A DNA stretch of 64,000 nucleotides from an uncultured Ruminococcus sp. Lineage in GTDB: Bacteria; Bacillota; Clostridia; Oscillospirales; Ruminococcaceae. A model generated the notes under the pieces. That model had not been told where the DNA came from, ran no database searches, and saw only the letters and a program-made list of their open reading frames with translations. The DNA lies in NCBI GenBank assembly GCA_947627275.1, contig CANQVK010000014.1:666-64665 (forward strand). The letters run 5' to 3'. Position numbers and translations under genes: made by a program. Shown in pieces: positions 3 to 16,190 of this stretch; position 1 is the stretch's first letter, and every line of letters starts with the position of its first letter.

Positions 3-1019
3 ACTGCGATAAAAATTCCCGACAGTATAACAAAAATTGGAGATGCAGCTTTTTTCGCTTGTTATGTTTTAAAATCAGTAGAGCTCCCTGACAGTGTTGT
101 TGAAATTGGAGAAGAAGCGTTTGGCTACTGCAAAGAATTAACAAGCGTGAAAATCGGAAGCGGCATTAAGACTATTGATTACGGTGCATTTATATATTGT
201 AAGGCCCTTGCGTCAATTACAATTCCCGACAGCGTTACAAGTATTGAGGCGAATGTTTTCGATCATACAGCATGGTATGACGCTCAGCCGAACGGTTTAT
301 TGTATGTCGGAAATATTTGCTATGAATATAAAGAGGCAATGCCTGATAATACGCAAATTACTATCAAAGAGGGAACAAAGGGGATCGCAGATCAAGCATT
401 TAAAGACTGCGTCGGTTTAACGTCGGTAACTATCCCTGACAGTGTTGAAAATATAGGATACAGTGCATTTTTCGGATGCACCGGCTTAACGTCGGTAACT
501 ATTCCCGAAGAAGTTAAAGTCATTCAGGGACAAGCGTTCAGGAATACAGGATTGAGGACGATAACTCTGCCCAAAAGCGTTGAAAAAATCGGAATGTACG
601 CTTTTTGGGAATGCGGCAGTCTGCGATCTATAACAGTAGAAAATCCAAAGTGTGAATTTGACGACCGAGTATATACCATTCCTGACAGCACGACAGTTTA
701 TGGCTGCATCGGTTCTACGGCTCAGGCTTATGCTAAGAAGTACGGCAAGGATTTTGTGCCTCTGGACGGAGGTTCATATTATTTTGGCGATGTAAACAAC
801 GACGGCAGTATAGATTCAACAGACGCTTCGTTGATACTCAGCGAATACGCTCTCGTTGCAACGACCGGCAAAAGTATTCTTTCGGAGGAGCAGAAGCTTG
901 CCGCTGACGTTAATTTCGATAATATTGTCGATGCAAGCGACGCCTCTTTAATTCTCGGCTACTATTCCTATACGTCAACGGGAGGTACGGAGTCGTTTGA
1001 AACGTTCCTTGCCATATGA
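3..1019 (+). CDS. BspA-type leucine-rich-repeat protein with C-terminal dockerin (5'-partial, runs off window start)
   Basis: Frame is open from position 3 (TAIKIPDSITKIGDAAF...). Repeated LxSVTIPDSVxxIGxxAF units; C-terminal GDVNNDGSIDSTDAS...ADVNFDNIVDASDAS Ca-binding dockerin duplication. Confidence 0.92.
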   Translation, partial: TAIKIPDSITKIGDAAFFACYVLKSVELPDSVVEIGEEAFGYCKELTSVKIGSGIKTIDYGAFIYCKALASITIPDSVTSIEANVFDHTAWYDAQPNGLLYVGNICYEYKEAMPDNTQITIKEGTKGIADQAFKDCVGLTSVTIPDSVENIGYSAFFGCTGLTSVTIPEEVKVIQGQAFRNTGLRTITLPKSVEKIGMYAFWECGSLRSITVENPKCEFDDRVYTIPDSTTVYGCIGSTAQAYAKKYGKDFVPLDGGSYYFGDVNNDGSIDSTDASLILSEYALVATTGKSILSEEQKLAADVNFDNIVDASDASLILGYYSYTSTGGTESFETFLAI

Positions 1020-1042
1020 GAACAGATTATAAAGGTGAGAAT

Positions 1043-1091
1043 AAAAAGTCTGCGTTTCACGTTTTTCGTGATCCGCAGATTTTTATTTTTT
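1043..1091 (+). terminator. Rho-independent terminator after LRR-dockerin gene
   Basis: AAAAAGTCTGCG...CGCAGATTTTT inverted repeat followed by a T-rich tract. Confidence 0.75.
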
Positions 1092-1217
1092 TACAGATCT
1101 AAATTAATTGTGCATAATGGCTGAATTATTATGATTTATTTGTGCAAGTATACGAATTTTTGAAAAGTTTATAATTTTTTCGTCTTTTTTGCCTTTTAAA
1201 ATCACTTGTATATATAA

Positions 1218-1360
1218 GGAATCATAAAGAAATAAGTTATACTCGCCGCTATTGCAAAATGTCCAAAGAATGCTGAACAGAAAATTCGTATGCCAAGGAA
1301 GATGACGCAGACAGATTTTATGTCTGCATTACTGAATATTTTGTAATAGCGGCGAGTGTA
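1218..1360. mobile_element. MITE-like hairpin repeat element, copy A
   Basis: Inverted repeat ACTCGCCGCTATTGCAAAAT (1241-1260) / ATTTTGTAATAGCGGCGAGT (1338-1357); core TATGCCAAGGAAGATGACGCAG; near-copy at 4222-4342; left end matches the terminal repeat of 46629-46740. Confidence 0.6.
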
Positions 1361-1385
1361 TAGTAATCCATGAATGGAGGATGTT

Positions 1386-2489
1386 ATGAAAAAAGAAATT
1401 ATTACAATAATGTCTGCTTTTATTTGTTTTTCTTCTTTTTCCTGCAACGACAAAGATGTTTCATCAAATAAAAACGAGATCGCATTTGCATTTTTAGGTG
1501 GGAGTTGCTATGGTAACGGCATGATACATAGCAGCGATCCAGTGAGATATATAGATTTTAATACTATGGAAAGCAGCGTTCTATGCGCCAAACCGAATTG
1601 TGAACATAAAACATCGGAGTGTGTTGCAAAGCTTGTCGGAGACTGCCCCATTATGTATAATGACTATTTGTATTACTTCACTTCAACTCAAGGCGTTGAA
1701 GAAACAGGAAATGGAAAGCGCGAATACAAGATAAACTCAAAGCTGTGCAGGGTATCTCTTGATTCGTCGGAATCCGAGGATATTGCATATTTCACCGATT
1801 GTAAACCTCGCGACTATGACGGCTGGATGATTATAAATAATACTGTTTGGTTTATCGGAGATAATATGAATCCGACTCCTGACGAATATGGAAATATAGC
1901 GACAAGTAATCAGGGCGGAGAACATTACATTTGCAGTATTGATCTGGAAAGCAAGGAGTACGTTAACTATGGCAGCGTATATGACGGCGATAAGGAATAT
2001 GAGGAAGCCTCATGTACAAGCAGCGCTCAGATAAGAGGATATTATAATTCTAAAATTATGATTCGATATGAGTTCGCAAAAAGCTCTGAAACAAGAGGTC
2101 AGGATTTCAGGCGGAGATTTACGGAGTTAATGTTTGAATTTGATCCACAAACAAAAGAATTAAAAGAAAGCGATCTTCAAATGCCTTCTTATGTTGATGA
2201 GGATACATATGTGTATACGGATTTTGACCAAAACAAGACATATGTTATAGATAATTCAAAAACATATGAAGTAACATGTGATACAGGTCTTGATTCTTTT
2301 GCTGTAAACAATAAACTGTTTGTTTCTGATGAAGATAAATGGTATGATCTGACAGACTTGTCTGAGCATAGCATGGGCGAATATGCAGATTATGGCGTTG
2401 TTGCATTTTATGATAACTCTTATATTTTAAGTGATGGTAATATGAAATTCGTCAAACTCATCGAAGAAGAACTTCTTGCGCTAAAATAA
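1386..2489 (+). CDS. Lipoprotein paralog L1 (CxxPNCxH motif, probable beta-propeller-like)
   Basis: GGAGG RBS at 1376-1380, MKK start, lipobox SFSC, LCAKPNCEHKTSEC, ICSIDL..EY.NYGSVY, C-terminal KLIEEELLALK. Confidence 0.85.
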   Translation: MKKEIITIMSAFICFSSFSCNDKDVSSNKNEIAFAFLGGSCYGNGMIHSSDPVRYIDFNTMESSVLCAKPNCEHKTSECVAKLVGDCPIMYNDYLYYFTSTQGVEETGNGKREYKINSKLCRVSLDSSESEDIAYFTDCKPRDYDGWMIINNTVWFIGDNMNPTPDEYGNIATSNQGGEHYICSIDLESKEYVNYGSVYDGDKEYEEASCTSSAQIRGYYNSKIMIRYEFAKSSETRGQDFRRRFTELMFEFDPQTKELKESDLQMPSYVDEDTYVYTDFDQNKTYVIDNSKTYEVTCDTGLDSFAVNNKLFVSDEDKWYDLTDLSEHSMGEYADYGVVAFYDNSYILSDGNMKFVKLIEEELLALK

Positions 2490-2517
2490 TAAAAATTGAT
2501 ATATTTTTCTATACCTA

Positions 2518-2546
2518 TTGACAATATAACAAATATATGGTATAAT
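2518..2546 (+). promoter_or_regulatory. sigmaA promoter for small secreted gene S1
   Basis: TTGACA-17 nt-TATAAT, exact consensus. Confidence 0.85.
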
Positions 2547-2612
2547 AAAATTTATGAGAAACACGACTTAGGTTAGTTGAATTATAACGCTTAAAAAGCG
2601 GCGGCTTCCGTT

Positions 2613-2939
2613 ATGGCTGTAGCTTCTCTCGCTTCCGTAATGGTCGGCATGAGCTCAAGCGCTTATTACACATCTCGTCCTTTTGGGCATGGCTCAACTG
2701 CTTACAACGCAACATCTATAAACAATGTCTACGCTTCGATGAATACGACTTTGGAAAAAACATACATAAAGGTAGGAGTCACGAAACTGAATGATTATGA
2801 CGTAAACGAATACTTTTCCGGCTCTGTTACGGATCATGTAGAGACAACTGCGTATGAATTAGGCATAAACAAGTCAACTTCTTACCACCAAGAGGGTAAA
2901 CTCGGTTACACTTACACTAATATCACTATGAACGCATAA
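2613..2939 (+). CDS. Small secreted-type protein S1 (signal-peptide n-region lost)
   Basis: MAVASLASVMVGMSSSA hydrophobic/cleavage segment nearly identical to S3; upstream codons homologous to S3 TFKKVVASV are frame-broken; no strong SD. Confidence 0.7.
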   Translation: MAVASLASVMVGMSSSAYYTSRPFGHGSTAYNATSINNVYASMNTTLEKTYIKVGVTKLNDYDVNEYFSGSVTDHVETTAYELGINKSTSYHQEGKLGYTYTNITMNA

Positions 2940-2951
2940 AAAATTATATTG

Positions 2952-3013
2952 TTGACTGGCTGCTGATGATCTGCGGCAACAGAACATGTAAGGGCATCAG
3001 CGGCTGTCAGCAA
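2952..3013 (+). terminator. Stem-loop between S1 and L2
   Basis: GCTGCTGATG / CATCAGCGGC inverted repeat extended by TGAC/GTCA. Confidence 0.55.
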
Positions 3014-3046
3014 TTTTAATTTATAGTATTGCAAAGAGGGGATATA

Positions 3047-4203
3047 ATGAAAAGAAACATATTTATTTTGTCAGTTCTTTTTTTATTTTTGCCATTAGTA
3101 TCATGTGAGGGTAAAAAAGAAAATCCAACTAATGAGTTTAATAATGAAATTATATATATATAGAAAGGTTGAATAACAATTATGGTGACGGCAAAATAAT
3201 AGGCTCATCTCATAAATTATCTGAGAATTATCTTAAATATTTAAAATATCAGGATATGAGTACTGCACCTTTTTGTTCTAAACCAAACTGCACTCATAAA
3301 ACAGATGACTGTTTGGCAAAAGCAGTAGGAAATTGTCCGATACTCACAAAAAACGGCGTATTTTTTTTCAGTGATAAATATGGAGTGGAAGAGAAAAAAG
3401 ATGGAAAAAGAGAATTTGAAATTGATTCCAAATTGTGCAGAGCATCTTTGGATTCTTCTGAAATCGAAACAGTCGCCGAATTTACAGACTGTGTTCCGCG
3501 TGAATATGACGGCTGTATGGTAATAGACGGCGTTTTGTGGTTTACCGGTGATGATATGAATCCCATTACCAATGAATATGGGGCTATTATATCGTCAAAC
3601 GTGGGCGGAACTCATTATTTATGCAGTATTGATCTTAAAACAGGCGAATATACAAATTACGGAAGTGTATATAACGGCGAGAATTACGACAAATCAAGTC
3701 ATGCGTCCATTGTTGGATATTACAACTCAAATCTGTTGATTAATTATGAATACGCAGCATCGCCGGATTATGAAGACCCAAGTGCGCCGTGGTTTGGTTT
3801 GAGCGATTTAATGTTTGAATTTGATCCGAAAACAAAAGAAATGAAGGTTTCCGATATTCCGTCAAGACCGATTTTCTTTGATTTGGAGTCGGAAACATTG
3901 GCTTACTGTGAATATGACGCCAACAAGATAATTGTATTGGCAGATAACAAGAGATATGAACTTAATATGGATATTGCTAAGATTGATGGCGGTATCGCCA
4001 ACTATGCTCCTGTTTATAATAATAAAATCATTATGCTTGGCAGCGGAAAGTGGTATGATATAACAGATCAATCAGAACATTATCTAGGTGAATATGCCGG
4101 TTGGGATTTTGAAGATTACTATGACGGTTGTTACATTTTATCCAACCCAAGAAGAACCAAATACGTCAAACTTACTGAAGAAGAACTTCTTGCGCTAAAA
4201 TAA
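3047..4203 (+). pseudogene. Lipoprotein paralog L2, frameshifted at a (TA)6 tract (possibly phase variable)
   Basis: ATG 3047 gives MKRNIFILSVLFLFLPLVSC (lipobox) and stops at TAG 3161-3163. Removing one TA from 3151-3162 joins it to ORF 3169-4203 (FCSKPNCTHKTDDC; KLTEEELLALK). Confidence 0.85.
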
Positions 4204-4221
4204 TAAAATTCGATAGATATA

Positions 4222-4342
4222 CTAGACGCTATTGAAAAATGCCCAAAGGATGCAGAACAGAAAATCCGTATGTCAAGGAAGATGACGCAGACAGACGGAT
4301 TTTATGTCTGCCTTACTGGATATTTTTCAATAGCGGCGAGTG
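4222..4342. mobile_element. MITE-like hairpin repeat element, copy B (left-truncated copy of A)
   Basis: CGCTATTGAAAAAT / ATTTTTCAATAGCG inverted repeat; core TATGTCAAGGAAGATGACGCAG; colinear with 1241-1360. Confidence 0.6.
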
Positions 4343-4383
4343 TAACATACGATAAAAACGATAATCAAAATTCAGGAGATTTT

Positions 4384-5541
4384 ATGAAAAATAAAATATT
4401 ATTTGCAACTGTTATAGTGGCATTTTTGACGTCAGGATGCGGCGGCAATGATGTAACTTCAAAAGGTAATATTCAGTCGGATAGCGATTTTACTTCTACT
4501 CATTCAGACGACAGCGTTCATAATTGCATTGATGCTCAATATATAGATTCAGGGGAAAATATATATGATAATGGCATGATCTATGGAAGTGACGCTCCCA
4601 AAACCTATTTGGATTTTGAAACAATGGAAAAGACTGTTTTATGCGCATTGCCTAATTGCAATCACTCCACATCTGAATGTATTGCTGCAAAAATTGGCAG
4701 AACTCCTATTATCTTTAATGACTATATTTATTATTTTGATGTTAAAGATGGTGTAAAAGAAAATTCGGATGGCAGAGAATTTTACATAGATTCTCAACTT
4801 AAGAGAGTTTCACTGACAAATTCTGAAATTGAAGACATAGTTCAATTTACAGATTGTGAACCCAGAGAATACGGTGGATGCGTTATTCTTGACGGAATTC
4901 TTTATTTTTGCGGCGATGACATGAATCCTACCAAGGACGAATATGGCGGAATATCTTATGCTAATGGAGGCGGTACTCATTTTTTATGTAGTATTGATCT
5001 TAATACGGGTGAATATGTTAATTATGGAAGTATTTACGATGAAGATAAGCAATATGAAAGCTCGGCTCAGACGAGTACTGCCCATGTAATCGGTTATTAT
5101 AATTCCAAGATTTATATCCAATATAGTTTTATGAAGGAATATATTGACGATCCGAACATTGAAACTCGTGAAAAATTCACGATCCTTAATTTTGAATTTG
5201 ACCCTTTAACAGGAAATTTGTCGCAAAGCGAACTTCTGTCGGGTTCGTTTATGAATGGAAATACCTATGTTTGCAGTAATTATCCTGACAATTCATCAAC
5301 TGTTATAGATGGCGATCAGAAATATACAATCAATGGAGCGGACGCAAAATTTGTTGGGAAATATTTCGACAAAAAGCTATTTGTTTACGATCGTTGGTAT
5401 GATGTTACAGATAAATCGTTGCATTTGCTTGGAGAAGATCGAAAATTTGTAACTATGTATGAGAATTTCTATATTATATCCAACCAATCAGGAACTAGAT
5501 ATGAAAAACTCACCGAAGAAGAACTTCTTGCACTAAAATAA
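4384..5541 (+). CDS. Lipoprotein paralog L3
   Basis: CAGGAG RBS then MKNKILF...LTSGC lipobox; LCALPNCNHSTSEC; KLTEEELLALK. The ORF-track start at 4270 lies inside the repeat element. Confidence 0.85.
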   Translation: MKNKILFATVIVAFLTSGCGGNDVTSKGNIQSDSDFTSTHSDDSVHNCIDAQYIDSGENIYDNGMIYGSDAPKTYLDFETMEKTVLCALPNCNHSTSECIAAKIGRTPIIFNDYIYYFDVKDGVKENSDGREFYIDSQLKRVSLTNSEIEDIVQFTDCEPREYGGCVILDGILYFCGDDMNPTKDEYGGISYANGGGTHFLCSIDLNTGEYVNYGSIYDEDKQYESSAQTSTAHVIGYYNSKIYIQYSFMKEYIDDPNIETREKFTILNFEFDPLTGNLSQSELLSGSFMNGNTYVCSNYPDNSSTVIDGDQKYTINGADAKFVGKYFDKKLFVYDRWYDVTDKSLHLLGEDRKFVTMYENFYIISNQSGTRYEKLTEEELLALK

Positions 5542-5569
5542 TAAAAATTTATATATTTTTCTATATCTA

Positions 5570-5598
5570 TTGACAATATAGAAAATATATGGTATAAT
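5570..5598 (+). promoter_or_regulatory. sigmaA promoter for S2
   Basis: TTGACA-17 nt-TATAAT. Confidence 0.85.
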
Positions 5599-5663
5599 AA
5601 AATTTATGAGGAAACGACTTAGGTTAGCTGAATTATAACGCTTAAAAAGCGGCAGCTTCCGTT

Positions 5664-5996
5664 ATGGCTATTTCAACACTTGTTGTAAGCACAGTTGGAG
5701 TTAACACGAATGCTTATTGGGCAACTGTGTCTTTTGCTAATGATTATGCAACAGCATATAATGCAACAAGTTATAATTCTGTATATGCTTACACTGATTC
5801 AAGTGTTTCAAATACTACAAGAACGGTTTATATTGCAAATGTGAATTATAATGTCAATCCATTGCGTTCTCCTTACTTTAAATCAAGTACTAATGGTAGG
5901 GTTGTAGCCAATTATACTGGCTCAGGATTTAACACCTCTAAAACGGATCATTCTTTAGCAGGCTACGGTAGCCATTCAATTTATATGAATGCTTAA
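5664..5996 (+). CDS. Small secreted-type protein S2 (n-region lost)
   Basis: MAISTLVVSTVGVNTNA signal remnant; shares TAYNATS.N.VYA and C-terminal MNA with S1; same damaged 5' region as S1. Confidence 0.7.
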   Translation: MAISTLVVSTVGVNTNAYWATVSFANDYATAYNATSYNSVYAYTDSSVSNTTRTVYIANVNYNVNPLRSPYFKSSTNGRVVANYTGSGFNTSKTDHSLAGYGSHSIYMNA

Positions 5997-6006
5997 ACGA
6001 AATAAT

Positions 6007-6039
6007 AAGGCTGTTGTTATAAATTGATGCAACAGCCTT
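6007..6039 (+). terminator. Stem-loop between S2 and L4
   Basis: AAGGCTGTTG / CAACAGCCTT perfect 10-bp stem. Confidence 0.65.
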
Positions 6040-6065
6040 TGTTCGTATGAAAGGAAAAGATTATA

Positions 6066-7202
6066 ATGAAAAAAATTGCTTATTATGCAATTGCCATGTT
6101 ATTTGCTTTATCATCATGTAACAGTAAGAATGAAACAAAAAACATTTTAATTGAAAGTAATGATAACATATTCGTTGCAGAGTATGCTGATAATTATAAA
6201 AACGGACGAATTATTGGCGGCAACTCTGAAGGAAACACCGATGCACCGTCAATGTATGTAGATTACAATACTATGGAGAAAACAATTCTTTGTTCTAAAC
6301 CAAATTGTACTCATAAAAATAGCGAGTGTCCGGCAAAGGTTATTGGAACTGCTCCAATACTTACAGAAAATAATATATGTTTTTTTGATTGCAGTTATGG
6401 TGTTGTAGAAAAAAAGAGTGGAAAGAGAGAATTGGAAATAAATTCTAAATTATGTAAATTATCTTTAGATACATCTGAAATAGAGACAATTGTTGAATTT
6501 AATGATTGCGTGCCGGATAATTCAAGAGGCTTTGTTCTTAACGATAATAAAATATATTTTACCGGAGACGATCTTGATCCAACATCGGATGAATACGGAG
6601 GAATTTTTTATTCCAATATAGGCGGAACTCATTATTTATGTAGTATTGATCTTAAAACAGGCGAATATACAAATTACGGAAGTATTTATGACGATGACAA
6701 AAAATTTGAAGGAGCAAAAAGTTCCAGCTCGGCAAGAATATTGGGGATATATGATTCTAAGCTGATTATAAATTATGAATTTAGCAAAACGAACGATGAT
6801 GCGGTCTATGGAAATTTTACTGAACTTGTATTTGAGTTTGATTTTGATTCCAATCAATGGACACTAAGCGATATTCCAAATATGCCAATTTTTGTTGATT
6901 ATGATACTATAGTCTATTATGATAATGATATAGATAGATGTATTATAATTGATAATGGAGAACGTACGGAACTTGATACTGGTAAAGTTACTCTTGCTTC
7001 AATTCAAAATAATAAGCTTTTTATTCGTGATGATTTGAATAATTTTGCTTTAAAATGGTATGACCTTTCGGATATGTCAAAGCATCATGTAAAAGGATAT
7101 GATGGCTATATGCCAGTAAGTATTTACAATGATAGCTACATTCTTACAAGAGGTAATAATACAGCTAAACTCACCGAAGAAGAACTTCTTGCACTAGAAT
7201 AA
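6066..7202 (+). CDS. Lipoprotein paralog L4
   Basis: MKK...ALSSC lipobox; LCSKPNCTHKNSEC; KLTEEELLALE. Confidence 0.85.
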   Translation: MKKIAYYAIAMLFALSSCNSKNETKNILIESNDNIFVAEYADNYKNGRIIGGNSEGNTDAPSMYVDYNTMEKTILCSKPNCTHKNSECPAKVIGTAPILTENNICFFDCSYGVVEKKSGKRELEINSKLCKLSLDTSEIETIVEFNDCVPDNSRGFVLNDNKIYFTGDDLDPTSDEYGGIFYSNIGGTHYLCSIDLKTGEYTNYGSIYDDDKKFEGAKSSSSARILGIYDSKLIINYEFSKTNDDAVYGNFTELVFEFDFDSNQWTLSDIPNMPIFVDYDTIVYYDNDIDRCIIIDNGERTELDTGKVTLASIQNNKLFIRDDLNNFALKWYDLSDMSKHHVKGYDGYMPVSIYNDSYILTRGNNTAKLTEEELLALE

Positions 7203-7230
7203 TAAAAATTGATATATTTTTTTATACCTA

Positions 7231-7259
7231 TTGACAAATTGGAAATAATATGTTATAAT
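7231..7259 (+). promoter_or_regulatory. sigmaA promoter for S3-L5-ABC unit
   Basis: TTGACA-17 nt-TATAAT. Confidence 0.85.
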
Positions 7260-7431
7260 GACATTGACGATAAAAAATATCATAACTCAAACTAATTAAA
7301 TTACAATAATAAGGTTAATTCAAAATTAATTTGTGGTCAGTTTTATTGTATATGGTAGGCTGAACTCAACATTATTTTAAAGGGCATAACATACGATAAA
7401 AACGATAATCAAAATTCAGGAGGTAGTTAAT

Positions 7432-7779
7432 ATGAAAAAAACTTTTAAAAAAGTGGTAGCTTCCGTTATGGCTGTAGCTTCTCTCGCTTCTGTTGTGGTC
7501 GGCATGAGCGCAAGCGCGGCAACTGGATACACTTCAAATCTTTCTGGTGGAACAGGCTCTTTGAGCGTTTCAGACGGTTTTGTATATGCTTCGACAACTT
7601 CAAGTAAAGCACAGTATTTGTACGTTGGAATAACAAGAACCACTCCCGAGGGAAATACTGATAGTGATGGCGGAAAAGGCAGAACCAGTGCTAGTGCAAC
7701 AGTATATGGTGACTATTCTCACGCATGGTCTTTTCATCAGACAGAAACAGGCAGCGATACTTTATCAGTAGGAAGATAA
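7432..7779 (+). CDS. Small secreted protein S3 with intact Sec signal peptide
   Basis: GGAGG RBS; MKKTFKKVVASVMAVASLASVVVGMSASA signal; Ser/Thr/Gly-rich ~86-aa mature part. Confidence 0.85.
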   Translation: MKKTFKKVVASVMAVASLASVVVGMSASAATGYTSNLSGGTGSLSVSDGFVYASTTSSKAQYLYVGITRTTPEGNTDSDGGKGRTSASATVYGDYSHAWSFHQTETGSDTLSVGR

Positions 7780-7790
7780 AATGAACTTAA

Positions 7791-7823
7791 GTGAAACCAT
7801 ACGAGCAATTCGTATGGTTTCGC
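7791..7823 (+). terminator. Stem-loop between S3 and L5
   Basis: GAAACCATACGA / TCGTATGGTTTC perfect stem. Confidence 0.65.
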
Positions 7824-7845
7824 AATATTTATAAGGGGCGTTTAA

Positions 7846-8988
7846 ATGAAATTTTTGATTAAAGCGATACTTGTGCCTGTTTCAATGTTGTTCCTTTTTG
7901 CGTGCGGAAACAACGGTGATACGCTGAATGAGGAAAAAATCCAAACTCAGGGATATGTAAAGGCTGTATGTAATTTATACAATAACGGTCGTATTTATAA
8001 CGATCAAAAAGCCATGTATGTAGATTTTGATACGCTCGAATCCGTTCCCCTCTGCTCTAAACCCAATTGTAATCATACGAGTTCGGACTGCGTTGCAAAT
8101 ATGGTCGGACAATGCCCGATAGTATATAATAACTACGTTTATTATCTGACTTTCAAGCATGGAGTTAATGAAGTCGGAAACGGAAAAAGAGAGTTTTATA
8201 TAAATTCAAAACTTAACCGTGTTTCAATGGAAACATCTGAAATGGAAACTGTTAAAGAGTTTCATGATGGTGTTCCAATTATTGCAGACGGATATTATCT
8301 GAATGGGAATGAACTATATTTTATAAGTACTGATATGGGACCTGACGAAGACGAATACGGAAATATATCTGTATCTGATTTTGGCGGAACACAGTTTTTA
8401 TGCTGCATCAACCTTGATACCGGAGAATACATAAATTATGGAAGTGTTTATGAAGGTGATAAACAATACGAGGGAGCGTCTCATTCGCGTGCCGCTACTA
8501 TAATCGGCGCAAAAGATTCAAAATTATATATTTTTTACAGCTATCGTGAAAAGAATTATTCTGTGGAAGAATTGCAGAAAATGCAGGAATCAGGCGTTGA
8601 TATGCAGGATACTTTTACTGATCTGAATTTCGAGTTTGATATGAATACAAAAACACTGTCCGAAAGTGAGCTTCCAGCACTGTCATATGTGGACTCAGAT
8701 TCGTATGTTTATTATGATCATACAAAAGAAAAAGCAATAGTTTTTTATCGTGGAAATGAATATGAGCTTGATGCTGATACGAGATATAATACATCAGTTA
8801 TCAACGGAAAGTTATTTACGCAGGATACACAGAAATGGTACGAATTAAGCGATATGTCAGAACACGATATGGGAAAGTACGGTAATTTTAAAGCAATAGC
8901 GTATTATGACAACTGCTATATTCTTGCATATGAAAATCAAACCGTCAAACTCACCGAAGAAGAACTTTTGGCGCTTGACAAGGAGTGA
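7846..8988 (+). CDS. Lipoprotein paralog L5 (coupled to ABC ATPase)
   Basis: LFAC lipobox; LCSKPNCNHTSSDC; KLTEEELLALDKE; its 3' end carries the AGGAG RBS of the next gene. Confidence 0.85.
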   Translation: MKFLIKAILVPVSMLFLFACGNNGDTLNEEKIQTQGYVKAVCNLYNNGRIYNDQKAMYVDFDTLESVPLCSKPNCNHTSSDCVANMVGQCPIVYNNYVYYLTFKHGVNEVGNGKREFYINSKLNRVSMETSEMETVKEFHDGVPIIADGYYLNGNELYFISTDMGPDEDEYGNISVSDFGGTQFLCCINLDTGEYINYGSVYEGDKQYEGASHSRAATIIGAKDSKLYIFYSYREKNYSVEELQKMQESGVDMQDTFTDLNFEFDMNTKTLSESELPALSYVDSDSYVYYDHTKEKAIVFYRGNEYELDADTRYNTSVINGKLFTQDTQKWYELSDMSEHDMGKYGNFKAIAYYDNCYILAYENQTVKLTEEELLALDKE

Positions 8989-8993
8989 TGATC

Positions 8994-9734
8994 GTGAATA
9001 AGCTTGGATTGCAGAAGATAAACAAGCACTACGGCAAGAAAAAACATGCGCTATGCGACTTTACATTTGAATTTACCAACGGGATTTACGGACTTCTCGG
9101 ACCGAACGGAGCAGGCAAATCCACGCTTATGAACATTATTACGGATAATCTTCTCCCCGATAAGGACGGCGGAAAAATTTTCTGGAACGGCGAGGAAACG
9201 AGGCTTCTCAAAGATAAATTCCGCAGCCGATTAGGATTTATGCCTCAGCAGCAGAACCTCTATGAGAGCATGACTGCGCGGAAGTTTTTGAACTATATTG
9301 CTGCGCTGAAATGCCTTGATAAAAGGTCGGCTGAAAAGGAGATCTCCGAAATAGTAGAGCGTGTAGAGCTTACCGACAGCATTGACAAAAAAATGGGCGG
9401 ATTTTCGGGCGGAATGAAGCAGAGAGTGCTGATTGCCGCCGCGCTTCTGGGCGACCCCGACCTTATAATCCTTGACGAGCCGACGGCAGGTCTTGATCCG
9501 AAGCAGAGGGTAATAATCCGCAATATGGTTTCGGTTTTGGGCAGGGACAAAATAATCATTATTTCGACGCATATCGTCTCGGACATTGAAACGATAGCAA
9601 AGGAGGTACTTTTCATAAAAGAGGGGCATCTGATAGACAGCGGTACTATGCCCGACCTGACCGAAAAGGTCGAAAGCGGCGATAAGACCCTTGAAAACCT
9701 GTATATGCAGTACTACGGCGAGGTGCAGTCATGA
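8994..9734 (+). CDS. ABC transporter ATP-binding protein
   Basis: Walker A GPNGAGKST, signature FSGGMKQR, Walker B IILDEP, H-loop STH. GTG 8994 is best spaced from the RBS (alternatives 8985/8988). Confidence 0.95.
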   Translation: MNKLGLQKINKHYGKKKHALCDFTFEFTNGIYGLLGPNGAGKSTLMNIITDNLLPDKDGGKIFWNGEETRLLKDKFRSRLGFMPQQQNLYESMTARKFLNYIAALKCLDKRSAEKEISEIVERVELTDSIDKKMGGFSGGMKQRVLIAAALLGDPDLIILDEPTAGLDPKQRVIIRNMVSVLGRDKIIIISTHIVSDIETIAKEVLFIKEGHLIDSGTMPDLTEKVESGDKTLENLYMQYYGEVQS

Positions 9735-11902
9735 GAGTTTTGGCTACAGAACTTAAAAAGCTGCTGAGCAATAAAATTTTCCTGCTGATAATTGCCGCTG
9801 TTTTCGTTCTGAACGGCTATCTTATGTTCAGGACGGCGAACTCGGGCGACGCCAAGCCTGCGGACTACAAAGCCGTTTATGCGGAGCTTGAAGGTCTGAG
9901 CGATACCGAGAAGCTTCAATGGCTCAATGACAGGCTCGGTGAATTTGAGGGGCAGCATTCGTTCAGTTGGACGGTTTTAGGCGAGCTTCGTGATGAAGCC
10001 GCAAATATTGCGGGCTATTCGGACTATCTTGATTCTATAGATTCACAGGCGAGATCAATGACGAGCGTTTCGATTTTTGCAAAGCCCGACACTTTCAACT
10101 ACCGCAGCATTGTGAGAACTCCGCCCGCATATGACAAGGTACGTGACGTTGAGCCGATTTTTGACGTTTCAAAGGGAATCGCCCTTGCAACGGACAACAG
10201 CTTCACGGATATTTTGAGCGGCTTTATTGTGCTGTTTGCTGTTTTGGCGCTGATGATCTCCGACAGAGAGCAGGGAATGTCGGGACTTCTTTTTTCTTTA
10301 AGGCGGGGCCGCAGCTATTTGCTCCTGAGTAAAACAGGCGCGCTTGCAATTGCGATTTTCGGCGCTATATTGCTTATTTATGCCGAGAATCTCATAATAG
10401 CTTCTTGTCTGTACGGTCTGGGCGAGCTGTCAAGACCCGTTCAGTCTCTTAACGGATTTATCGGCTGTAATCTGAAAATAAGCGTTATTGGATATTTGAT
10501 CTTATACGTTCTGTTCAAGTTCATTGCAATGTTTGTGATCGGAGCGTTTCTTTCGCTTATTGCGGTGAATACTAAAAATATCGTATCTTTTTACGGCATA
10601 TCGGCAGTTATCCTGATTGCGGAGGGCGTTGCCTATGCGAAGATACATCCGCTGTCGATATACAGTATTTTCAGATATATCAATCTTATTTCGTTTACAA
10701 AGGTCAACGAGATATTCTGCAATTACAAAAACATAAATTTTTGGGAATATCCCGTTCCGCTGATACCGACTTCTATTGGCGCAGTACTTGTCATCGCTGC
10801 GATATGCGTTGTGTTGTCATCGTATATGTACGCAAAGAAACGTAATCTTGAATTCAGAAAAATCGGATTCAAATTCAGGTTCGGGAAAGGAAATAAAATT
10901 CATTCCAGACTTTATTATACGCTTTACAAGTCGCTCATAATGCAAAAGGGAATATTTATTATCGCCGTTTTTATTGTGGTATCTGTATTTATGGGTGAAG
11001 CCTTTATCAAAAAATACGACCCCATCGACGTCTATTACGAATATTATACGACTGAAACAGAGGGCGAAATTACGCAGGAAACCATTGATTTCTACGACAG
11101 TGAAGCTATCAGGTTCGATGAGCTTAACGCGCGTCTGGAAAATCCCGATATTACCTCTGAGGAGGAAAGAGAAATTTATAAGCAGCTTGCGCCGACAATG
11201 GGATTTTATCCGTCGTATGAACGCCTGAATCAAATCAAGGACATCGAAAACGCGCATATTTTTTACGATACGGGATATAAACGCGCGTTTGGAATAAACG
11301 GTTATGACGATGATATGAAATACGCATTTGCGGCGATACTGCTTTGTCTGTTTCTGATCTCTCCGCTGATAGCCAATGACAATAAATATCGGATGAAATC
11401 GGTTATCAATTCTACAAGCTCAGGCAGAAAAAGTTATATCCGCAGAAATATTTTAACGGCTGCGCTGTATGGATTTGCGGCGTCGCTTCTGTGGATAATT
11501 CCCTATATGGTCACTATTTCCCGATATTACGGACACGGCGGACTTTCGGCTTCGATACGCAGTATCACTGATCTTATAAATTTTCCTCTGAACATCAGCG
11601 TATTGCAGTATATAATTCTTATATGCCTGCTGAGAACAGTTTCCGTACTTTTTACAGCTATGATAATGCTCTGGGTATCTTCGATGTGCAGGAATGTAAT
11701 TTCGGCTGTGCTTATTAATTTCGCCGTATTTGCTCTGCCGATCATAATTTATTTGCTCGGTGCGGAATTTATGGCGAATATCGGATTTAATCCTCTGCTA
11801 AGCGTTAATGTTATGTTAAATGAATTTTCAATTGTGCAGATCATGATACCGCTAATTGGCGTAATTGCAGTTATGATCTGTGAAATTCAAAATAGAAAGT
11901 GA
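9731..11902 (+). CDS. Large ABC-2-like exporter permease with two similar halves and extracellular loops
   Basis: ATGA overlap with the ATPase; many TM segments; repeated motifs SDREQGMSGLLFSLRRGR / NDNKYRMKSVINSTSSGR. Confidence 0.85.
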   Translation: MRVLATELKKLLSNKIFLLIIAAVFVLNGYLMFRTANSGDAKPADYKAVYAELEGLSDTEKLQWLNDRLGEFEGQHSFSWTVLGELRDEAANIAGYSDYLDSIDSQARSMTSVSIFAKPDTFNYRSIVRTPPAYDKVRDVEPIFDVSKGIALATDNSFTDILSGFIVLFAVLALMISDREQGMSGLLFSLRRGRSYLLLSKTGALAIAIFGAILLIYAENLIIASCLYGLGELSRPVQSLNGFIGCNLKISVIGYLILYVLFKFIAMFVIGAFLSLIAVNTKNIVSFYGISAVILIAEGVAYAKIHPLSIYSIFRYINLISFTKVNEIFCNYKNINFWEYPVPLIPTSIGAVLVIAAICVVLSSYMYAKKRNLEFRKIGFKFRFGKGNKIHSRLYYTLYKSLIMQKGIFIIAVFIVVSVFMGEAFIKKYDPIDVYYEYYTTETEGEITQETIDFYDSEAIRFDELNARLENPDITSEEEREIYKQLAPTMGFYPSYERLNQIKDIENAHIFYDTGYKRAFGINGYDDDMKYAFAAILLCLFLISPLIANDNKYRMKSVINSTSSGRKSYIRRNILTAALYGFAASLLWIIPYMVTISRYYGHGGLSASIRSITDLINFPLNISVLQYIILICLLRTVSVLFTAMIMLWVSSMCRNVISAVLINFAVFALPIIIYLLGAEFMANIGFNPLLSVNVMLNEFSIVQIMIPLIGVIAVMICEIQNRK

Positions 11903-11907
11903 GAGAC

Positions 11908-12675
11908 ATGAAGAAAAAAATTATATCAGCAGTGTGTATACTGTTGGCTATGAATTTAATTAGCTGTGGAAGCTGGGCAGATCCATATCCGATAGATTAT
12001 TCGGCAAAGGACAATCTTGCGATAGAGTATATGAATGGAAAATATGGTGAAAATTTTAACATTTCCGTAGGCACGATAAGTGAGCATACATGGGCTCCAA
12101 TGGAAGAACCTTTCAGCGTATATTACTATACAATGGTAAGTCCTGAGGGTGCGGCAGAGGATGAAAAATATTACGTCTATTCCGATGACAACGAAACTCA
12201 TGAAGAGTCATGGATAGTCGGCGATGGCTATATGATGAACATTGTTGAGCCGTATATCAGACAGTTTGTTGAGGAATCTCTGAAAGAACACGCTCCCTGT
12301 GCTGATACGTATTTCATTATATGGGGGGCGGGAAGTGCAGATATTCGTGAACAAACGACATTATTTACAAGCACTTTCTGCTTCAGTCCTGATTTTCCTG
12401 TTATCTCATCATACGATGAGTTTTTAGAGGAAGCGAAAAATGTTTACCTTGATTTGTGTATATTTGTACCTGATTCCGAGCAGAATATTGATTCTGTAGC
12501 TCAGGACTGGCAGGAATGGCGAGAATATATGTATGGTAACTTTAATGAAGGGATAAATCTTTGGTTGGAAACTGTCGAGGACGAGAGCTTTTTCGGGGCG
12601 GATGATACGTTACCGGATAAACACTTGAATTTTAAAACAACACATACAATAAACCTAAAGGATTGGAGAGAATAA
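11908..12675 (+). CDS. Acidic lipoprotein of unknown function (unrelated to L1-L5)
   Basis: MKKKIISAVCILLAMNLISC lipobox; AIEYMNGKYGENF N-terminal motif. Confidence 0.75.
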   Translation: MKKKIISAVCILLAMNLISCGSWADPYPIDYSAKDNLAIEYMNGKYGENFNISVGTISEHTWAPMEEPFSVYYYTMVSPEGAAEDEKYYVYSDDNETHEESWIVGDGYMMNIVEPYIRQFVEESLKEHAPCADTYFIIWGAGSADIREQTTLFTSTFCFSPDFPVISSYDEFLEEAKNVYLDLCIFVPDSEQNIDSVAQDWQEWREYMYGNFNEGINLWLETVEDESFFGADDTLPDKHLNFKTTHTINLKDWRE

Positions 12676-12711
12676 AATGAGCAGAGAAAACAACATTGAT
12701 TTAGATGAAAT

Positions 12712-12807
12712 AATGTTATGTTAAATGAATTTACGCCGGTGCAGATTGCGATCCCTGCATTGGCATTGGTAGGTTTTGCCGTCAGGAAAAAACTTTATAA
12801 ATTATAG
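12712..12807 (+). pseudogene. Orphan alternative C-terminus of the ABC permease
   Basis: 12711-12732 is identical to 11806-11827; reads NVMLNEFTPVQIAIPALALVGFAVRKKLYKL* versus permease NVMLNEFSIVQIMIPLIGVIAVMICEIQNRK*. Confidence 0.8.
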
Positions 12808-12836
12808 TGAACGTAAAAATAAATTTTACGTTCGCT

Positions 12837-12885
12837 ATAGACCTCCTCGGAAATCGGAGAAGCGCTGGATTCCGAGGAGGTCTAT
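12837..12885. terminator. Strong hairpin closing the accessory locus
   Basis: ATAGACCTCCTCGGAA / TTCCGAGGAGGTCTAT 16-bp inverted repeat; a second hairpin lies at 12808-12835. Confidence 0.6.
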
Positions 12886-13003
12886 TGAATTTCCTGCAAA
12901 GCGAAAGCGTCCCCTGCTAAAGTTGACGGTCAAAGCTGGACAAATAAAAAAAAATGTGGTATAATAATTTCTGCAATAAAAAATCAAAGCAGAGGTAAAA
13001 AAT

Positions 13004-14155
13004 ATGAACAAAAAAGAGACAGCAGAGATAAAGAAGAACTTTTCGGATAAAAGCGGATTTTTCATTATGGACAGAGTTCTTACGGGCTTTGTGGACGCAG
13101 AAAAAAACGTCCGCTACTATAAAACGTCGTCGTGTCTGACGATGCCTGTTGAGGAGCATGACGTATACGATGAAACGCTGAAAAAAGTCCTCAACACAAA
13201 CGTGGGAAAGAATTTCTGCGAATATCAGTTTCCAAACGAAGCCTACGAGGAGGGACAGCCGCAGGAGATACTTTACAGTCTGCTCCGTTCTGAGCTTAAG
13301 GACGACATTATCTGCGAGAATTTCATGAATCATATAGCGAACAATTTCAGTCACGAAGGGCCGTATGCGGTCATTACGGCATATTGTACATACACTATCC
13401 GCCGCAAGGACAAAAACGACGAGTTTGCGGAGGGCGAGGACGAGCTTTACCGCTATCTGCTCACAGCGCTCTGTCCCGTGAATACAGGCAGCGACGGCTT
13501 TGTTTTCGACAGCTTCAATAACGAGATAACAAAGAAAGTAAACACCGAACTTATCATCAGCAAAGCGCCCTCCGAGGGATTTTTGTATCCTGTTTTCAGC
13601 AACAGAAGCTCCGATATAAACCATGTAATGTGTTATATGAAGTCCGCCTCAAAGCCGAATATTTCGCTTGTTGAGAACGTTCTGGGCTGTACGTTCGTGA
13701 TGTCTGCGGATAACGAAAAGGCAAGCTTTCAAAATATTCTTAAGGGCGTTGTAGGCGACGATCTGGACTATATGGTCATAAAGACCGTAAATGAAAAGCT
13801 ACAGGAGGTAGTTGAGGAAAATAAGGACGATACGGACAAAACAGTCATTGACAATTCCAAGCTTAAGGGTATTCTTACCGATATAGGGATCCCACAGGAG
13901 CGTGTAGAGATGACGGACCCTGTGTACGAGAAATTCTGCGGAGACGCGCCGCTTACCGTGAGCAATCTTATCGAGACGAAAACGGTGCTGACTTCTCCCG
14001 GAATAACCGTGAATATCAAGCCGTCGGCAGCCGATAAGGTGCGTACAAGCGTGGTAAACGGACGGCGATGTCTGCTTATAGATCTTGACGACCCCACCAT
14101 TGAAATAAACGGTCTGCCTGTCAGACTGGAGGAGAAAAAGGAGGTCATGGCATAG
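13004..14155 (+). CDS. DUF4317 family protein
   Basis: MNKKETAEIKKNF start and FLYPVFSNRSSDINH motif recognised as typical of this Clostridia family; RBS GAGGT. Confidence 0.8.
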   Translation: MNKKETAEIKKNFSDKSGFFIMDRVLTGFVDAEKNVRYYKTSSCLTMPVEEHDVYDETLKKVLNTNVGKNFCEYQFPNEAYEEGQPQEILYSLLRSELKDDIICENFMNHIANNFSHEGPYAVITAYCTYTIRRKDKNDEFAEGEDELYRYLLTALCPVNTGSDGFVFDSFNNEITKKVNTELIISKAPSEGFLYPVFSNRSSDINHVMCYMKSASKPNISLVENVLGCTFVMSADNEKASFQNILKGVVGDDLDYMVIKTVNEKLQEVVEENKDDTDKTVIDNSKLKGILTDIGIPQERVEMTDPVYEKFCGDAPLTVSNLIETKTVLTSPGITVNIKPSAADKVRTSVVNGRRCLLIDLDDPTIEINGLPVRLEEKKEVMA

Positions 14156-14173
14156 AAACGCCTATCATCGTTA

Positions 14174-14334
14174 AGAGCCTGTTTAGTATCTCGGCGTGTG
14201 CGAATTTTCGAGCATAATTTTGCCGAATACAAGTCAAAAATCCACAGGCATATTGTCATATGGCAAGGATTTTTAACGCAGTAATCGGAAAATTTGCTGA
14301 AAATACGTGCGTGAGGAGATACTAAACAGGCTCT
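14174..14334. mobile_element. MITE-like element, copy C
   Basis: Perfect 18-bp terminal inverted repeats AGAGCCTGTTTAGTATCT / AGATACTAAACAGGCTCT; core CAGGCATA..TATGGCAAGGATTTTTAACGCAG. Confidence 0.75.
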
Positions 14335-14422
14335 AAAACAGGGGGACAAAGCCCCCCTGACAAATTAACGATATTGGGCAGGCACGCAGTATTGCGAGGT
14401 CTGCCGTGTTTCTTTTGACGAT

Positions 14423-15679
14423 ATGCAGAAGATAAAGGATATTTTTCACAGCGAGCATTTGAAAGAGATAAGATTTTTTTTCAAATGGCTGTTTATAGGC
14501 TCGGTCATGGGAGTTCTTATAGGACTTACGGGCGCTTTATTTCATTTCTGCTCCGGCGAGGCGGAGAGCTTCCGGACAGAACACACATGGCTGATATTTC
14601 TGCTTCCTGCTGCCGGAGCGGCGATAGCCTGCTTGTACGACGTACTCAATTACAGCCATGATAAAGGAACTAACCTTGTGCTTTTAGCCGTCCGCGACAA
14701 TAAAATAATGGGAATACGCCATGCCGTGTGTATTTTCATAGCGACTGTGCTTACCCATTTATGCGGCGGTTCAAGCGGACGAGAGGGTGCGTCACTGCAA
14801 ATCGGGGCGGCGCTCGGTTCGTTTACGGGACGTAAGCTGAAATTCAACGACGATGATAAGCGGATAATGACAATGTGCAGCATGAGCGCAATGTTTGCGG
14901 CGGTTTTTGGTACTCCCGTAACAGCTGCCATTTTTTCTATGGAAGTGGTCAGCGTTGGAATTTTCTACTACTCGGCAATAGTTCCATGCGTTACGGCTGC
15001 GCTGACAGCGGGATATATTTCATCGCTTTTCGGAAATACCCATATACAGGTAAGTGTAAATATGCCTGATGCAGACCCTTTGCTGTATCTGAAAGTCGTG
15101 CTTATAGGAGCTGTATGCGCCGGTATCAGCGTGCTTTTCTGTGTACTTCTGGGCGGTACGAGTAAGCTTTTCAAAAAAATCAAAAACCACGCTCTGAGGG
15201 CGGCGGCAGGCGGCGTTATCGTAGTTCTGCTGACCGTGATCGAGGGCAGCGGCATGTACAACGGAACGGGCGGAGCGGCAATAATCTCGGCATTTGTCAA
15301 AAGTCCGTTCTTTGCGGCGTTCATTATAAAAATGCTGTTTACGGCAGTCACTCTCGGTTCGGGCTTCAAGGGCGGAGAAATATTTCCCGTGTTTTTTATC
15401 GGTTCGTCTTTCGGGAGCGTTTTTGCGCCGCTGCTGGGGCTGGACTGTTCTGTTGGAGCGTCAGTCGGCATGGCTGCGCTTTTCTGCGGCGTTACAAACT
15501 GTCCCGTTGCTTCGATACTGTTGAGTATCGAGCTTTTCGGCAGCGAGGGCATCGGAGTTTACGTGCTTGCCTGTGCGGTGAGCTACATGCTTTCGGGTTA
15601 CAGAGGTCTGTACAGCGAGCAGAAAATATTGTACTCAAAAATCAAAACCAAGTATATAAATAAACGCATCGGCGGATAA
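14423..15679 (+). CDS. ClC/EriC chloride channel family protein
   Basis: GSSGREGA and GFKGGEIFP selectivity-filter motifs; multiple TM helices. Confidence 0.92.
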   Translation: MQKIKDIFHSEHLKEIRFFFKWLFIGSVMGVLIGLTGALFHFCSGEAESFRTEHTWLIFLLPAAGAAIACLYDVLNYSHDKGTNLVLLAVRDNKIMGIRHAVCIFIATVLTHLCGGSSGREGASLQIGAALGSFTGRKLKFNDDDKRIMTMCSMSAMFAAVFGTPVTAAIFSMEVVSVGIFYYSAIVPCVTAALTAGYISSLFGNTHIQVSVNMPDADPLLYLKVVLIGAVCAGISVLFCVLLGGTSKLFKKIKNHALRAAAGGVIVVLLTVIEGSGMYNGTGGAAIISAFVKSPFFAAFIIKMLFTAVTLGSGFKGGEIFPVFFIGSSFGSVFAPLLGLDCSVGASVGMAALFCGVTNCPVASILLSIELFGSEGIGVYVLACAVSYMLSGYRGLYSEQKILYSKIKTKYINKRIGG

Positions 15680-15745
15680 CGTCGTCAACTTATATGGGAA
15701 AAGAACTCTCATAAGTTGATGACGTTGCAGTTCCCTGCAAAGCTG

Positions 15746-16138: not shown

Positions 16139-16190
16139 AAAAAGCCTCCACATAATATTTACTTAATATTATGCGGAGGCTTGTTTTTTT
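16139..16190 (-). terminator. yajC terminator overlapping the RBS of the downstream gene
   Basis: Minus-strand hairpin AAGCCTCCGCATAATATT / AATATTATGTGGAGGCTT followed by a T run and then ATG. Confidence 0.6.

Follow-up and report, generated by a model that had tools for sequence, protein, structure and literature searches.

A candidate family of Sec-exported protein bacteriocins with propeller lipoproteins and a shared ABC-2 exporter in Ruminococcus

Introduction

What might a gut anaerobe do with a chain of diverged lipoprotein genes, some preceded by a gene for a small secreted protein, that runs into the genes of one ATP-binding cassette (ABC) transporter? The question is raised by a 64,000 nt stretch of DNA (contig CANQVK010000014.1, positions 666–64,665; termed the window) from a Ruminococcus of the rabbit gut. 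Open reading frame (ORF) listing, alignments and repeat finding resolved a block of this window into five paralogous lipoproteins (L1 to L5), three small secreted proteins (S1 to S3), and then an ABC-2 ATPase, a permease and another lipoprotein. The parts of this array all lie on the forward strand.

An initial annotation, made from the letters of the DNA alone, regarded S3, L5 and the ABC genes as the active unit, took the upstream units for an archive of variant effector and immunity cassettes, and drew a comparison with lactococcin 972 loci. We followed up these proposals using approximately 45 related loci (given three-digit handles such as L001), which were collected by looking up genomic contexts and by scanning 185,579 species genomes, and were annotated with family hidden Markov models (HMMs). 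Full-text searches of the literature gave no description of the S-L-ABC system. In the rumen and hindgut, Ruminococcus and related bacteria act as keystone degraders of fibre, and strain competition among them is very little understood. With moderate confidence, and on the strength of sequence comparisons, we propose that S is a Sec-exported protein bacteriocin, that L, acting together with a shared ABC-2 exporter, is a cognate immunity binder, and that the upstream units of the window are orphan immunity genes accompanied by disabled S genes.

S and L genes are distributed asymmetrically

The related loci, which occur in Ruminococcus and other Oscillospiraceae, share a core of one to six L genes followed by the ATPase and permease genes, with the last L gene overlapping the start of the ATPase gene. 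As a conserved module, this gene order was recorded in approximately 25 loci. An S gene, where present, directly precedes an L gene. The number and order of cassettes vary, such that L001 carries six S-L pairs and L003 carries six L genes with no S. The array is therefore not invariant, and its range of one to six cassettes agrees with the variation across Ruminococcus genomes that had been anticipated. The genome scan yielded 32 loci, and the system is absent from most Oscillospiraceae.

Every S gene has an L gene directly downstream, and 34 of the 65 unique L genes have no S. Several S-less L genes are 88–99% identical to S-linked L genes of other genomes (97.6% in L006, 98.8% and 99.4% in L012, 99.1% in L039 and 90% in L019, with a further example in L010). 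The near identity of S-less and S-linked genes therefore indicates that S has been lost repeatedly and recently, and that L has been kept. The reverse assignment, in which L is a toxin and S its antidote, was rejected because L is frequent without S and S never occurs without L.

The types of S and L also co-vary. Their identity matrices correlate (r = 0.68; Mantel test, 0 of 2000 permutations), and for most pairs the closest S from a different genome is accompanied by the closest L as well. For example, the S2-L4 pair of the window matches the pair of L028, with identities of 61% for S and 72% for L. Divergence follows a gradient, from the permease (55–76% identical) through L (approximately 40–48%) to mature S (approximately 20–35%). 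A variable S followed by L, co-varying S and L types, orphan L genes and L-only arrays together constitute the layout of a polymorphic toxin-immunity system.

The same features would also be accommodated if S inhibited an L-ABC surface machine of rival cells, as in the target-variant model of the Bacteroidales BSAP toxins. The linked L would then be a resistant allele and an L array would provide redundancy. L is strictly coupled to a conserved exporter with or without S, L-only arrays are common, the S type tracks the adjacent L type, and the L domain appears to serve as an extracellular sensor in some loci (see below). However, if toxicity were dominant through L, the possession of as many as six different L genes would broaden sensitivity, and retained immunity is the simpler account of S-less L genes with 98–99% identity to their S-linked counterparts. 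Moreover, a machine represented by only 32 loci in the scanned genomes has no evident housekeeping role. We regard this reading as unlikely.

Architecture of the window array

As initially described, the block is AT-rich, with a GC content of 28–40% compared with 46–48% in the ABC genes. The five lipoproteins are diverged paralogs (pairwise identity 46–50%), all located where they had first been placed, and alignment upheld the description of S1 to S3 as proteins that have a common signal-peptide core and differing mature regions. A promoter precedes and a hairpin follows each S gene, and the ATPase, permease, lipoprotein and orphan permease tail reported to follow L5 are all present.

The array begins with copy 1 of a dispersed 125 nt hairpin repeat (1238–1362; inverted repeat I2), which stands in place of a promoter and S unit before L1 (1386–2489; L-family HMM E = 1.7e-155). 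The L1 ORF opens at 1374, and its likely start is the ATG at 1386 located behind GGAGG. Promoter P1 (2518–2546) is followed by S1 (2577–2939), an intervening hairpin (2947–3013; −33 kcal/mol, z = −5.2) and the broken lipoprotein gene L2* (3047–4203). Copy 2 of the repeat (4218–4345; 87–91% identical to copy 1) lies before L3 (4384–5541), which, like L1, is intact and has no S before it. Promoter P2 (5570–5598), S2 (5664–5996), a second hairpin (6007–6039; −20 kcal/mol, z = −5.6) and the intact L4 (6066–7202) form the next unit, in which L4 is the apparent cognate partner of S2, as judged from the L gene that follows the closest S2 relative in L028. The last unit comprises promoter P3 (7231–7259), a 170 nt leader, S3 (7432–7779), a hairpin or attenuator (7791–7823; z = −6.9) and L5 (7846–8988), which is translationally coupled to the ATPase gene (8985–9734). 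The permease gene (9731–11902), the lipoprotein gene (11899–12675) and the orphan permease 3′ end (12711–12807) complete the block.

The proposal that S3-L5-ABC is the active unit is supported by a sister strain (L004; L5 96% identical), which holds exactly this one unit between the same flanks. The window carries approximately 6 kb of additional cassettes, and the two strains that differ by this amount in array size are 87% identical. The upstream units do contain variant cassettes as proposed, but they are not a silent archive, because L1, L3 and L4 are intact and two of the units retain consensus promoters. The S2-L4 pair has orthologues among intact S-L pairs of other genomes, L1 is 68% identical to an S-linked L of L040 and L3 is 67% identical to an S-linked L of L001. 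These units are better read, from their gene content, as expressed orphan immunity genes.

S proteins share a signal peptide and differ in their mature regions

S1 and S2 are 36% identical, and S3 is approximately 20–30% identical to either. S3 is the sole intact S of the window. It has a Sec signal peptide with predicted cleavage after A29, and its 86 aa mature domain is modelled as a small beta-sandwich, with a predicted local distance difference test (pLDDT) score above 87 over residues 31–115. Both S1 and S2 carry an in-frame TAA at codon 6 (at position 2592 in S1, where the residual ORF spans 2613–2939). S1 and S2 are probably disabled, because the codon 6 TAA leaves only an internal ATG that lacks a Shine-Dalgarno sequence and a charged n-region. 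A programmed frameshift at the A-run of S1 and S2 was considered and rejected, as the stop lies in frame and no start codon precedes it. S1 is recognized by the S-family HMM, and the mature part of S2 is orthologous to intact S proteins of L001, L024 and L028.

The main conserved feature of S is a near-invariant His within an A-x-S-x-H motif. Only four relatives of S3 were recovered by single-sequence search, compared with approximately 33 by profile and 29 when 1.84 billion cluster representatives were searched exhaustively with a profile. Two proteins with DUF2712 matches (P0122 and P0124) were set aside as S members. They are 156–167 aa long, give the weakest scores (E = 1.6e-9 and 2.3e-3) and match only in the common signal-peptide region.

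S1 to S3 have no match at E ≤ 1 in Pfam or NCBIfam, and in these databases S therefore does not match a characterized non-antagonistic family, an outcome that would have weighed against the initial annotation. By these searches S is a new protein family. The family HMM of lactococcin 972 (Pfam Lactococcin_972; TIGR01653) finds none of 32 S-family members. The structure comparisons that had been suggested for S and L were run on S3 and L5. The Foldseek matches of S against PDB and BFVD are weak and generic (immunoglobulin, fibronectin type III (FN3) and carbohydrate-binding module (CBM)-like, E ≥ 0.01). No lactococcin 972 entry is among the top 50 PDB fold matches. Because the matches are so generic, S can be assigned to no toxin fold, that of lactococcin 972 included.

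The best of these fold matches is CBM56 (E = 0.01), which raises the question of whether L and the ABC-2 transporter process a surface polymer or plant-fibre compound, with S as an accessory CBM-like binder and no antagonism involved. The hosts are fibre degraders, dockerin and glycoside-hydrolase genes occur near the loci, and the best PDB match of L is a gut-Firmicute propeller of unknown function. Against such substrate handling stand the weakness and generality of the fold matches themselves. In addition, hypervariability, arrays, mobile carriage, Agr/LytTR control and the S/L asymmetry are atypical of metabolic systems. We consider this explanation improbable.

L is a predicted beta-propeller lipoprotein

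Each L gene encodes a lipobox (FSSFSC in L1, PLVSC in L2, LTSGC in L3, ALSSC in L4 and LFAC in L5), and the Cys at position 20 of L5 is kept in at least 90% of 58 homologues. Across the same homologues a C-x4-C-x-H-x4-C motif is invariant and a C-terminal helix, KLTEEELLAL, is nearly so. A search of 5.8 billion proteins with L5 yielded only 88 homologue clusters, all unnamed and all from Ruminococcus or other Oscillospiraceae.

The AlphaFold2 model of L5 is confident and all-beta (pLDDT 88.6; pTM 0.85). Its Foldseek matches are beta-propellers, the best of which is the 7-bladed propeller-like protein EUBREC_1955 of Eubacterium rectale (PDB 3s25; E = 3.6e-7, TM-score 0.44/0.54), yet this protein has no sequence relation to L. 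No L protein gives a significant match in Pfam or NCBIfam, and the L profile finds nothing among PDB sequences. Membership among the DUF5050-like and 3s25 beta-propellers is likewise not indicated, given the absence of a Pfam match and TM-scores of only 0.44/0.54. Thus, by sequence searches L is a new protein family, and by its model it is confidently predicted to be a beta-propeller lipoprotein.

The frameshift of L2* results from a +2 slip within an (AT)n dinucleotide run (3143–3153) and places the window allele out of frame. An allele that is 2 nt shorter, present in another rabbit-gut sample (run X4), restores an intact 384 aa lipoprotein gene. The run could mediate slip-strand on/off switching, or it could be an ordinary population polymorphism.

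The transporter resembles ABC-2 exporters

The ATPase gene, whose start at 8985 is overlapped by the end of L5, best matches GldA and DrrA. This class also holds lantibiotic-protection and phenol-soluble modulin (PSM) export transporters, and the scores are below every family cut-off. The lantibiotic-protection subfamily (TIGR03740) gives E = 2.6e-42 and 145 bits against a cut-off of 309.75, and the L_ocin_972_ABC family (TIGR03608) gives 117.9 bits against a cut-off of 254.85, which is lower than the GldA and DrrA scores.

The 723 aa permease is built from two ABC-2-type halves in tandem (E = 1.7e-9 for the internal repeat). Each half consists of one transmembrane segment (TM1), an extracellular domain of approximately 120 aa and TM2–6. 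The permease has no Pfam or NCBIfam match, and hence none to TIGR01654, and a search of PDB sequences returned nothing. Among 19 permease orthologues, two are matched by ABC2_membrane_2 (best E = 4e-7). The combination of a DrrA/GldA-class ATPase with two permease halves of this topology is that of an ABC-2 (type V) exporter.

The 258 aa lipoprotein that follows has no Pfam or NCBIfam match and occurs after the permease in this lineage only, with two copies in L004 (8316–9894). The orphan permease 3′ end beyond it is 80% identical to 11806–11850 and 82% identical to the true permease end of L006. From these alignments, insertion of the lipoprotein gene is the event that brought in a new permease 3′ end and displaced the ancestral end as the orphan segment.

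Promoters, hairpins and a dispersed repeat

Each S gene of the window lies behind a TTGACA-17-TATAAT promoter (12 of 12 consensus positions) that also carries the extended −10 TG, beginning at 2518, 5570 and 7231. The 170 nt leader after P3 contains the motif GGTCAGTT, which is also present in S leaders adjoining Agr modules of other loci. The hairpin between S and L, for which z ranges from −5.2 to −6.9 in the window, is conserved as a feature rather than in sequence, with z below −3 in 19 of 22 pairs.

Two copies of a repeat do precede L1 and L3 as noted initially, but they are not specific to the S-L system. The RNA corresponding to the 125 nt repeat folds with −52 kcal/mol (z = −7.8) and shows compensatory changes between the two copies. 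In the rabbit-gut metagenome the depth is 294 for copy 1 and 72 for copy 2, compared with approximately 10 for the flanks (7–30 times). Metagenome contigs join the repeat, whose centre varies, to many different flanks, and it is also present in contigs from an RNA run. Because of this high depth and diversity of flanks, the repeat is a dispersed element that lies outside the system. It has no Rfam match, and a search of related loci and JGI metagenome contigs gave only a chance 20-mer. The element could be a miniature inverted-repeat transposable element or belong to a small-RNA family.

An Rfam scan of the window from 1 to 16 kb returned nothing except a sub-threshold match to the retroviral RSV_RNA element (5700–5875, minus strand, within S2). 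This match was dismissed as spurious, with 26 bits against a gathering score of 105.

Quorum sensing and a probable sensor role of the L domain

An Agr-type module lies directly upstream of S in 11 loci from at least seven lineages (L009, L014, L021, L022, L023 from the cultured R. flavefaciens SAb67, L030, L031, L034, L038, L040 and L041). It comprises a LytTR regulator, an AgrC-like kinase, AgrB and a 51 aa AgrD-like peptide, with Pfam matches above gathering cut-offs. In L001, all six S promoters have TTCACTGCAA-N12-TTCACTGCAA direct repeats ahead of a TATAAT with a poor −35, a layout that we take to be the canonical LytTR site, as in those of AgrA, PlnC and ComE. In L012 the LytTR regulator and kinase remain, AgrB and S are gone, and both L genes show 99% identity to S-linked counterparts.

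The 64 kb window has no Agr module, as judged by tblastn with Agr proteins. Matches at 17–19.8 kb appear to be receiver- and kinase-domain matches of an iterated profile, to judge from the Response_reg and HTH_AraC genes that L004 has at the corresponding position. Fragments of the agrD 3′ end (93–96% identical) stand before internal S genes in L038 (9573–9662), L041 (5025–5114) and L039 (1901–1984 and 3708–3797), and therefore the duplicated cassette unit of these arrays began inside agrD.

Two loci, L020 (1349–3327) and L032 of R. flavefaciens MC2020 (11158–13190), contain a gene for an extracytoplasmic function (ECF)-like sigma factor within the L-ABC operon. The stop codon of this gene overlaps the start of a gene for a 475 aa protein, in which an N-terminal cytoplasmic segment of approximately 75 aa is linked through a single transmembrane helix to an extracellular L domain. 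The pairing suggests that the L fold acts here as a sensor outside the cytoplasm, and the membrane protein looks like the bearer of a new anti-sigma sensor domain. Thus strain MC2020 carries sigma/anti-sigma-L-ABC without S, and strain SAb67 carries Agr-S-L-ABC.

These arrangements invite the view that S proteins are polymorphic secreted signals, for communication or kin recognition, that L proteins are their receptors, and that output proceeds via the ABC transporter or the sigma/anti-sigma pair. The fusion of an L domain to an anti-sigma-like transmembrane protein beside an ECF-like sigma factor, the Agr linkage that places S in a communication circuit, and the occurrence of S and L as cognate pairs are all consistent with such signalling. 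On the other hand, ordinary L lipoproteins have no cytoplasmic part, and neither the loss of S with retention of L nor the failure of S to occur without L would be expected of a signal. An exporter of the drug- and peptide-resistance class would also be an unusual signalling output. Signalling of this type seems distinctly unlikely to us. We are equally doubtful of a more specific version, in which S proteins are non-toxic polymorphic ligands read by L-domain receptors and constitute a protein-based code for self/non-self or strain recognition in Gram-positive gut anaerobes, layered on Agr.

Genomic neighbourhood and mobile context

Some loci lie in a mobile context, either on elements that carry a MobL relaxase, an integrase, a resolvase and PemK or beside a large serine recombinase at cotJC. 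In L038, L040 and L041 (approximately 450–4800 and 13500–16200), Agr-S-L-ABC resides on an element with DUF3991/Toprim, MobL relaxase, tyrosine integrase, PemK and serine recombinase genes. One S protein of this MobL element, P0102, is named by NCBI as coming from a Holdemanella sp., which suggests either cross-family transfer or a binning error. In L042–L044 (5150–7570) an S-L-ABC island adjoins cotJA, cotJB, a truncated cotJC (Mn-catalase) and a large serine recombinase gene. This arrangement suggests site-specific insertion of the island at cotJC. An intact cotJC-like gene is located directly ahead of the array in L001 (3356–4024).

Polymorphic surface proteins on mobile elements might also serve in phage evasion, with L and S masking or varying a phage receptor such as the large domains that the permease exposes outside the cell. 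A precedent that favours this notion is known from Firmicutes, in which large ABC-2-like membrane proteins (Pip/YhgE) act as phage receptors. Searches of defence systems and phages do not: PADLOC returned generic ATPase matches only and none for S, L or the permease, and L5 has no tblastn match in 50,697 phage records or among plasmids. Quorum-sensing control and the presence of a secreted partner would also be left unexplained. We judge a phage-related role to be very improbable.

The upstream neighbour of the window array (147–1019) encodes a leucine-rich-repeat protein with a C-terminal dockerin-like repeat, a cellulosome-type surface protein. A gene with the same LRR_5 and Dockerin domains occurs in L003, approximately 5.5 kb upstream of its L array.

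A proposed mechanism

The data show the gene layout, the folds, where the system occurs, how its genes are linked and their regulatory setting; the toxicity of S, its binding to L and the part played by the exporter are inferred. If S is a bacteriocin and L its immunity partner, the system could operate as follows. An S precursor of approximately 115 aa would be exported by the Sec system and cleaved after A-x-A, and the resulting beta-sandwich of approximately 90 aa would harm relatives that lack the matching L. Membrane-anchored L would bind its cognate S at the cell surface via the variable propeller. The conserved C-terminal helix and CCHC motif of L would serve the ABC-2 exporter, possibly by way of the helix, such that one exporter is common to all L paralogs. 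The exporter would clear S from the envelope, much as is the case for LanI with LanFEG.

Expression is predicted to be tuned by a strong promoter together with the hairpin after S, giving high levels of S and lower levels of L and the ABC proteins. Transcription of S would be driven by Agr-type quorum sensing in many relatives and by a consensus sigma-70 promoter in the window. Cassettes may be gained, lost and shuffled by recombination at a conserved junction formed by the L 3′ end, the promoter and the signal-peptide coding region (repeat families D3 and D4). In the window, S3-L5-ABC would be live, and L1, L3 and L4, joined by L2 in some cells, would be orphan immunity genes whose S partners were lost or disabled.

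In favour of this proposal are the conserved module, the S/L asymmetry, the recent loss of S with L kept, the S-L co-variation, the divergence gradient, the quorum-sensing and mobile contexts, the sensor use of the L domain, the conserved hairpin and the class of the transporter. Purifying selection on S3 (dN/dS approximately 0.25, compared with 0.06 for L5) and the presence of S3 in an RNA run also count for it. Several observations weigh against the proposal. Neither the sequence nor the fold of S reveals a relative among known toxins, the best matches being CBM56 and FN3 at E of approximately 0.01. S and L would co-vary through physical linkage alone. Even where S is missing, L is always coupled to the transporter, and the primary role of L-ABC could therefore be physiological. 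A ligand and receptor relationship accounts for the anti-sigma fusions equally well. All genes compared between near strains are under purifying selection, and over this short range no gene shows a sign of positive selection. Finally, the RNA evidence is a single exact 255 nt contig over S3, from one run that is the sole metatranscriptome holding the locus, and is too thin for expression ratios. Despite these points, the alternatives explain the S/L asymmetry and the repeated loss of S less simply than does immunity.

Toxicity of S would establish a new class of Sec-dependent protein bacteriocins and a new immunity design, in which a cognate propeller lipoprotein feeds a shared ABC-2 exporter, and would offer dozens of matched S/L specificities as a natural library. 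The loci show the pattern expected of bacteriocins, including quorum-sensing producers, mobile islands and strains that keep the pheromone sensor and immunity without the toxin. Sensor-coupled immunity via the sigma/anti-sigma pair would be a further part of this ecological pattern. A function would thereby be assigned to S and L, which are both new protein families, and the cultured R. flavefaciens strains SAb67 and MC2020 make the system directly testable.

Comparison with known systems

By analogy, the system would work like lactococcin 972 and LanI/LanFEG and would evolve like polymorphic toxin arrays, but by sequence and transporter comparisons it belongs to neither the lactococcin 972 nor the LanI/LanFEG family. 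The initial comparison with lactococcin 972 stands as an analogy. In both, the gene of a small, beta-rich protein that depends on Sec and is unmodified lies immediately ahead of an ABC ATPase gene, and a membrane protein of approximately 700 aa is presumed to give immunity. Membership does not stand, since the HMM and transporter tests fail and, by these comparisons, the S-L-ABC system is not a lactococcin 972 member. S lacks a sequence match, and a fold match among the top Foldseek results, and the permease is an ABC-2 tandem rather than a member of the 7-TM family associated with lactococcin 972. Systems of the window type additionally have a cognate propeller lipoprotein, cassette arrays and Agr control.

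With LanI/LanFEG the proposed system would share a two-layer logic, in which a surface lipoprotein binds the toxin and an ABC-2 exporter expels it. In contrast, L is a 360 aa beta-propeller unrelated to NisI and SpaI, the effector is a folded protein of approximately 10 kDa rather than a modified peptide, and the permease halves are fused. Lantibiotic modification genes are found neither in the window locus nor in related loci.

The loci also resemble polymorphic toxin arrays, such as the contact-dependent inhibition (CDI), Rhs, type VI secretion (T6SS) and type VII secretion (T7SS) cassettes and the acquired interbacterial defence (AID) islands of Bacteroidales. In both, variant effector-immunity cassettes stand in tandem, some immunity genes are orphans or form arrays without effectors, conserved junctions provide sites for recombination, and mobile elements can carry the genes. 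Unlike the effectors of those arrays, S has no conserved delivery domain beyond its Sec signal peptide, and the whole mature protein varies. A second difference is that the putative immunity protein is a lipoprotein located outside the cytoplasm and linked to an ABC exporter.

Regulation recalls that of Agr/LytTR-controlled toxins and class II bacteriocins (Blp and Pln), in that a LytTR regulator, a kinase and a peptide-pheromone module lie directly upstream and LytTR-type direct repeats are present. An ABC-2 exporter that protects its producer, as proposed here, has a counterpart in the staphylococcal PSM peptides with Pmt. S differs from these effectors in being Sec-dependent and much larger, and the window array, which has no Agr module, relies instead on a consensus sigma-70 promoter.

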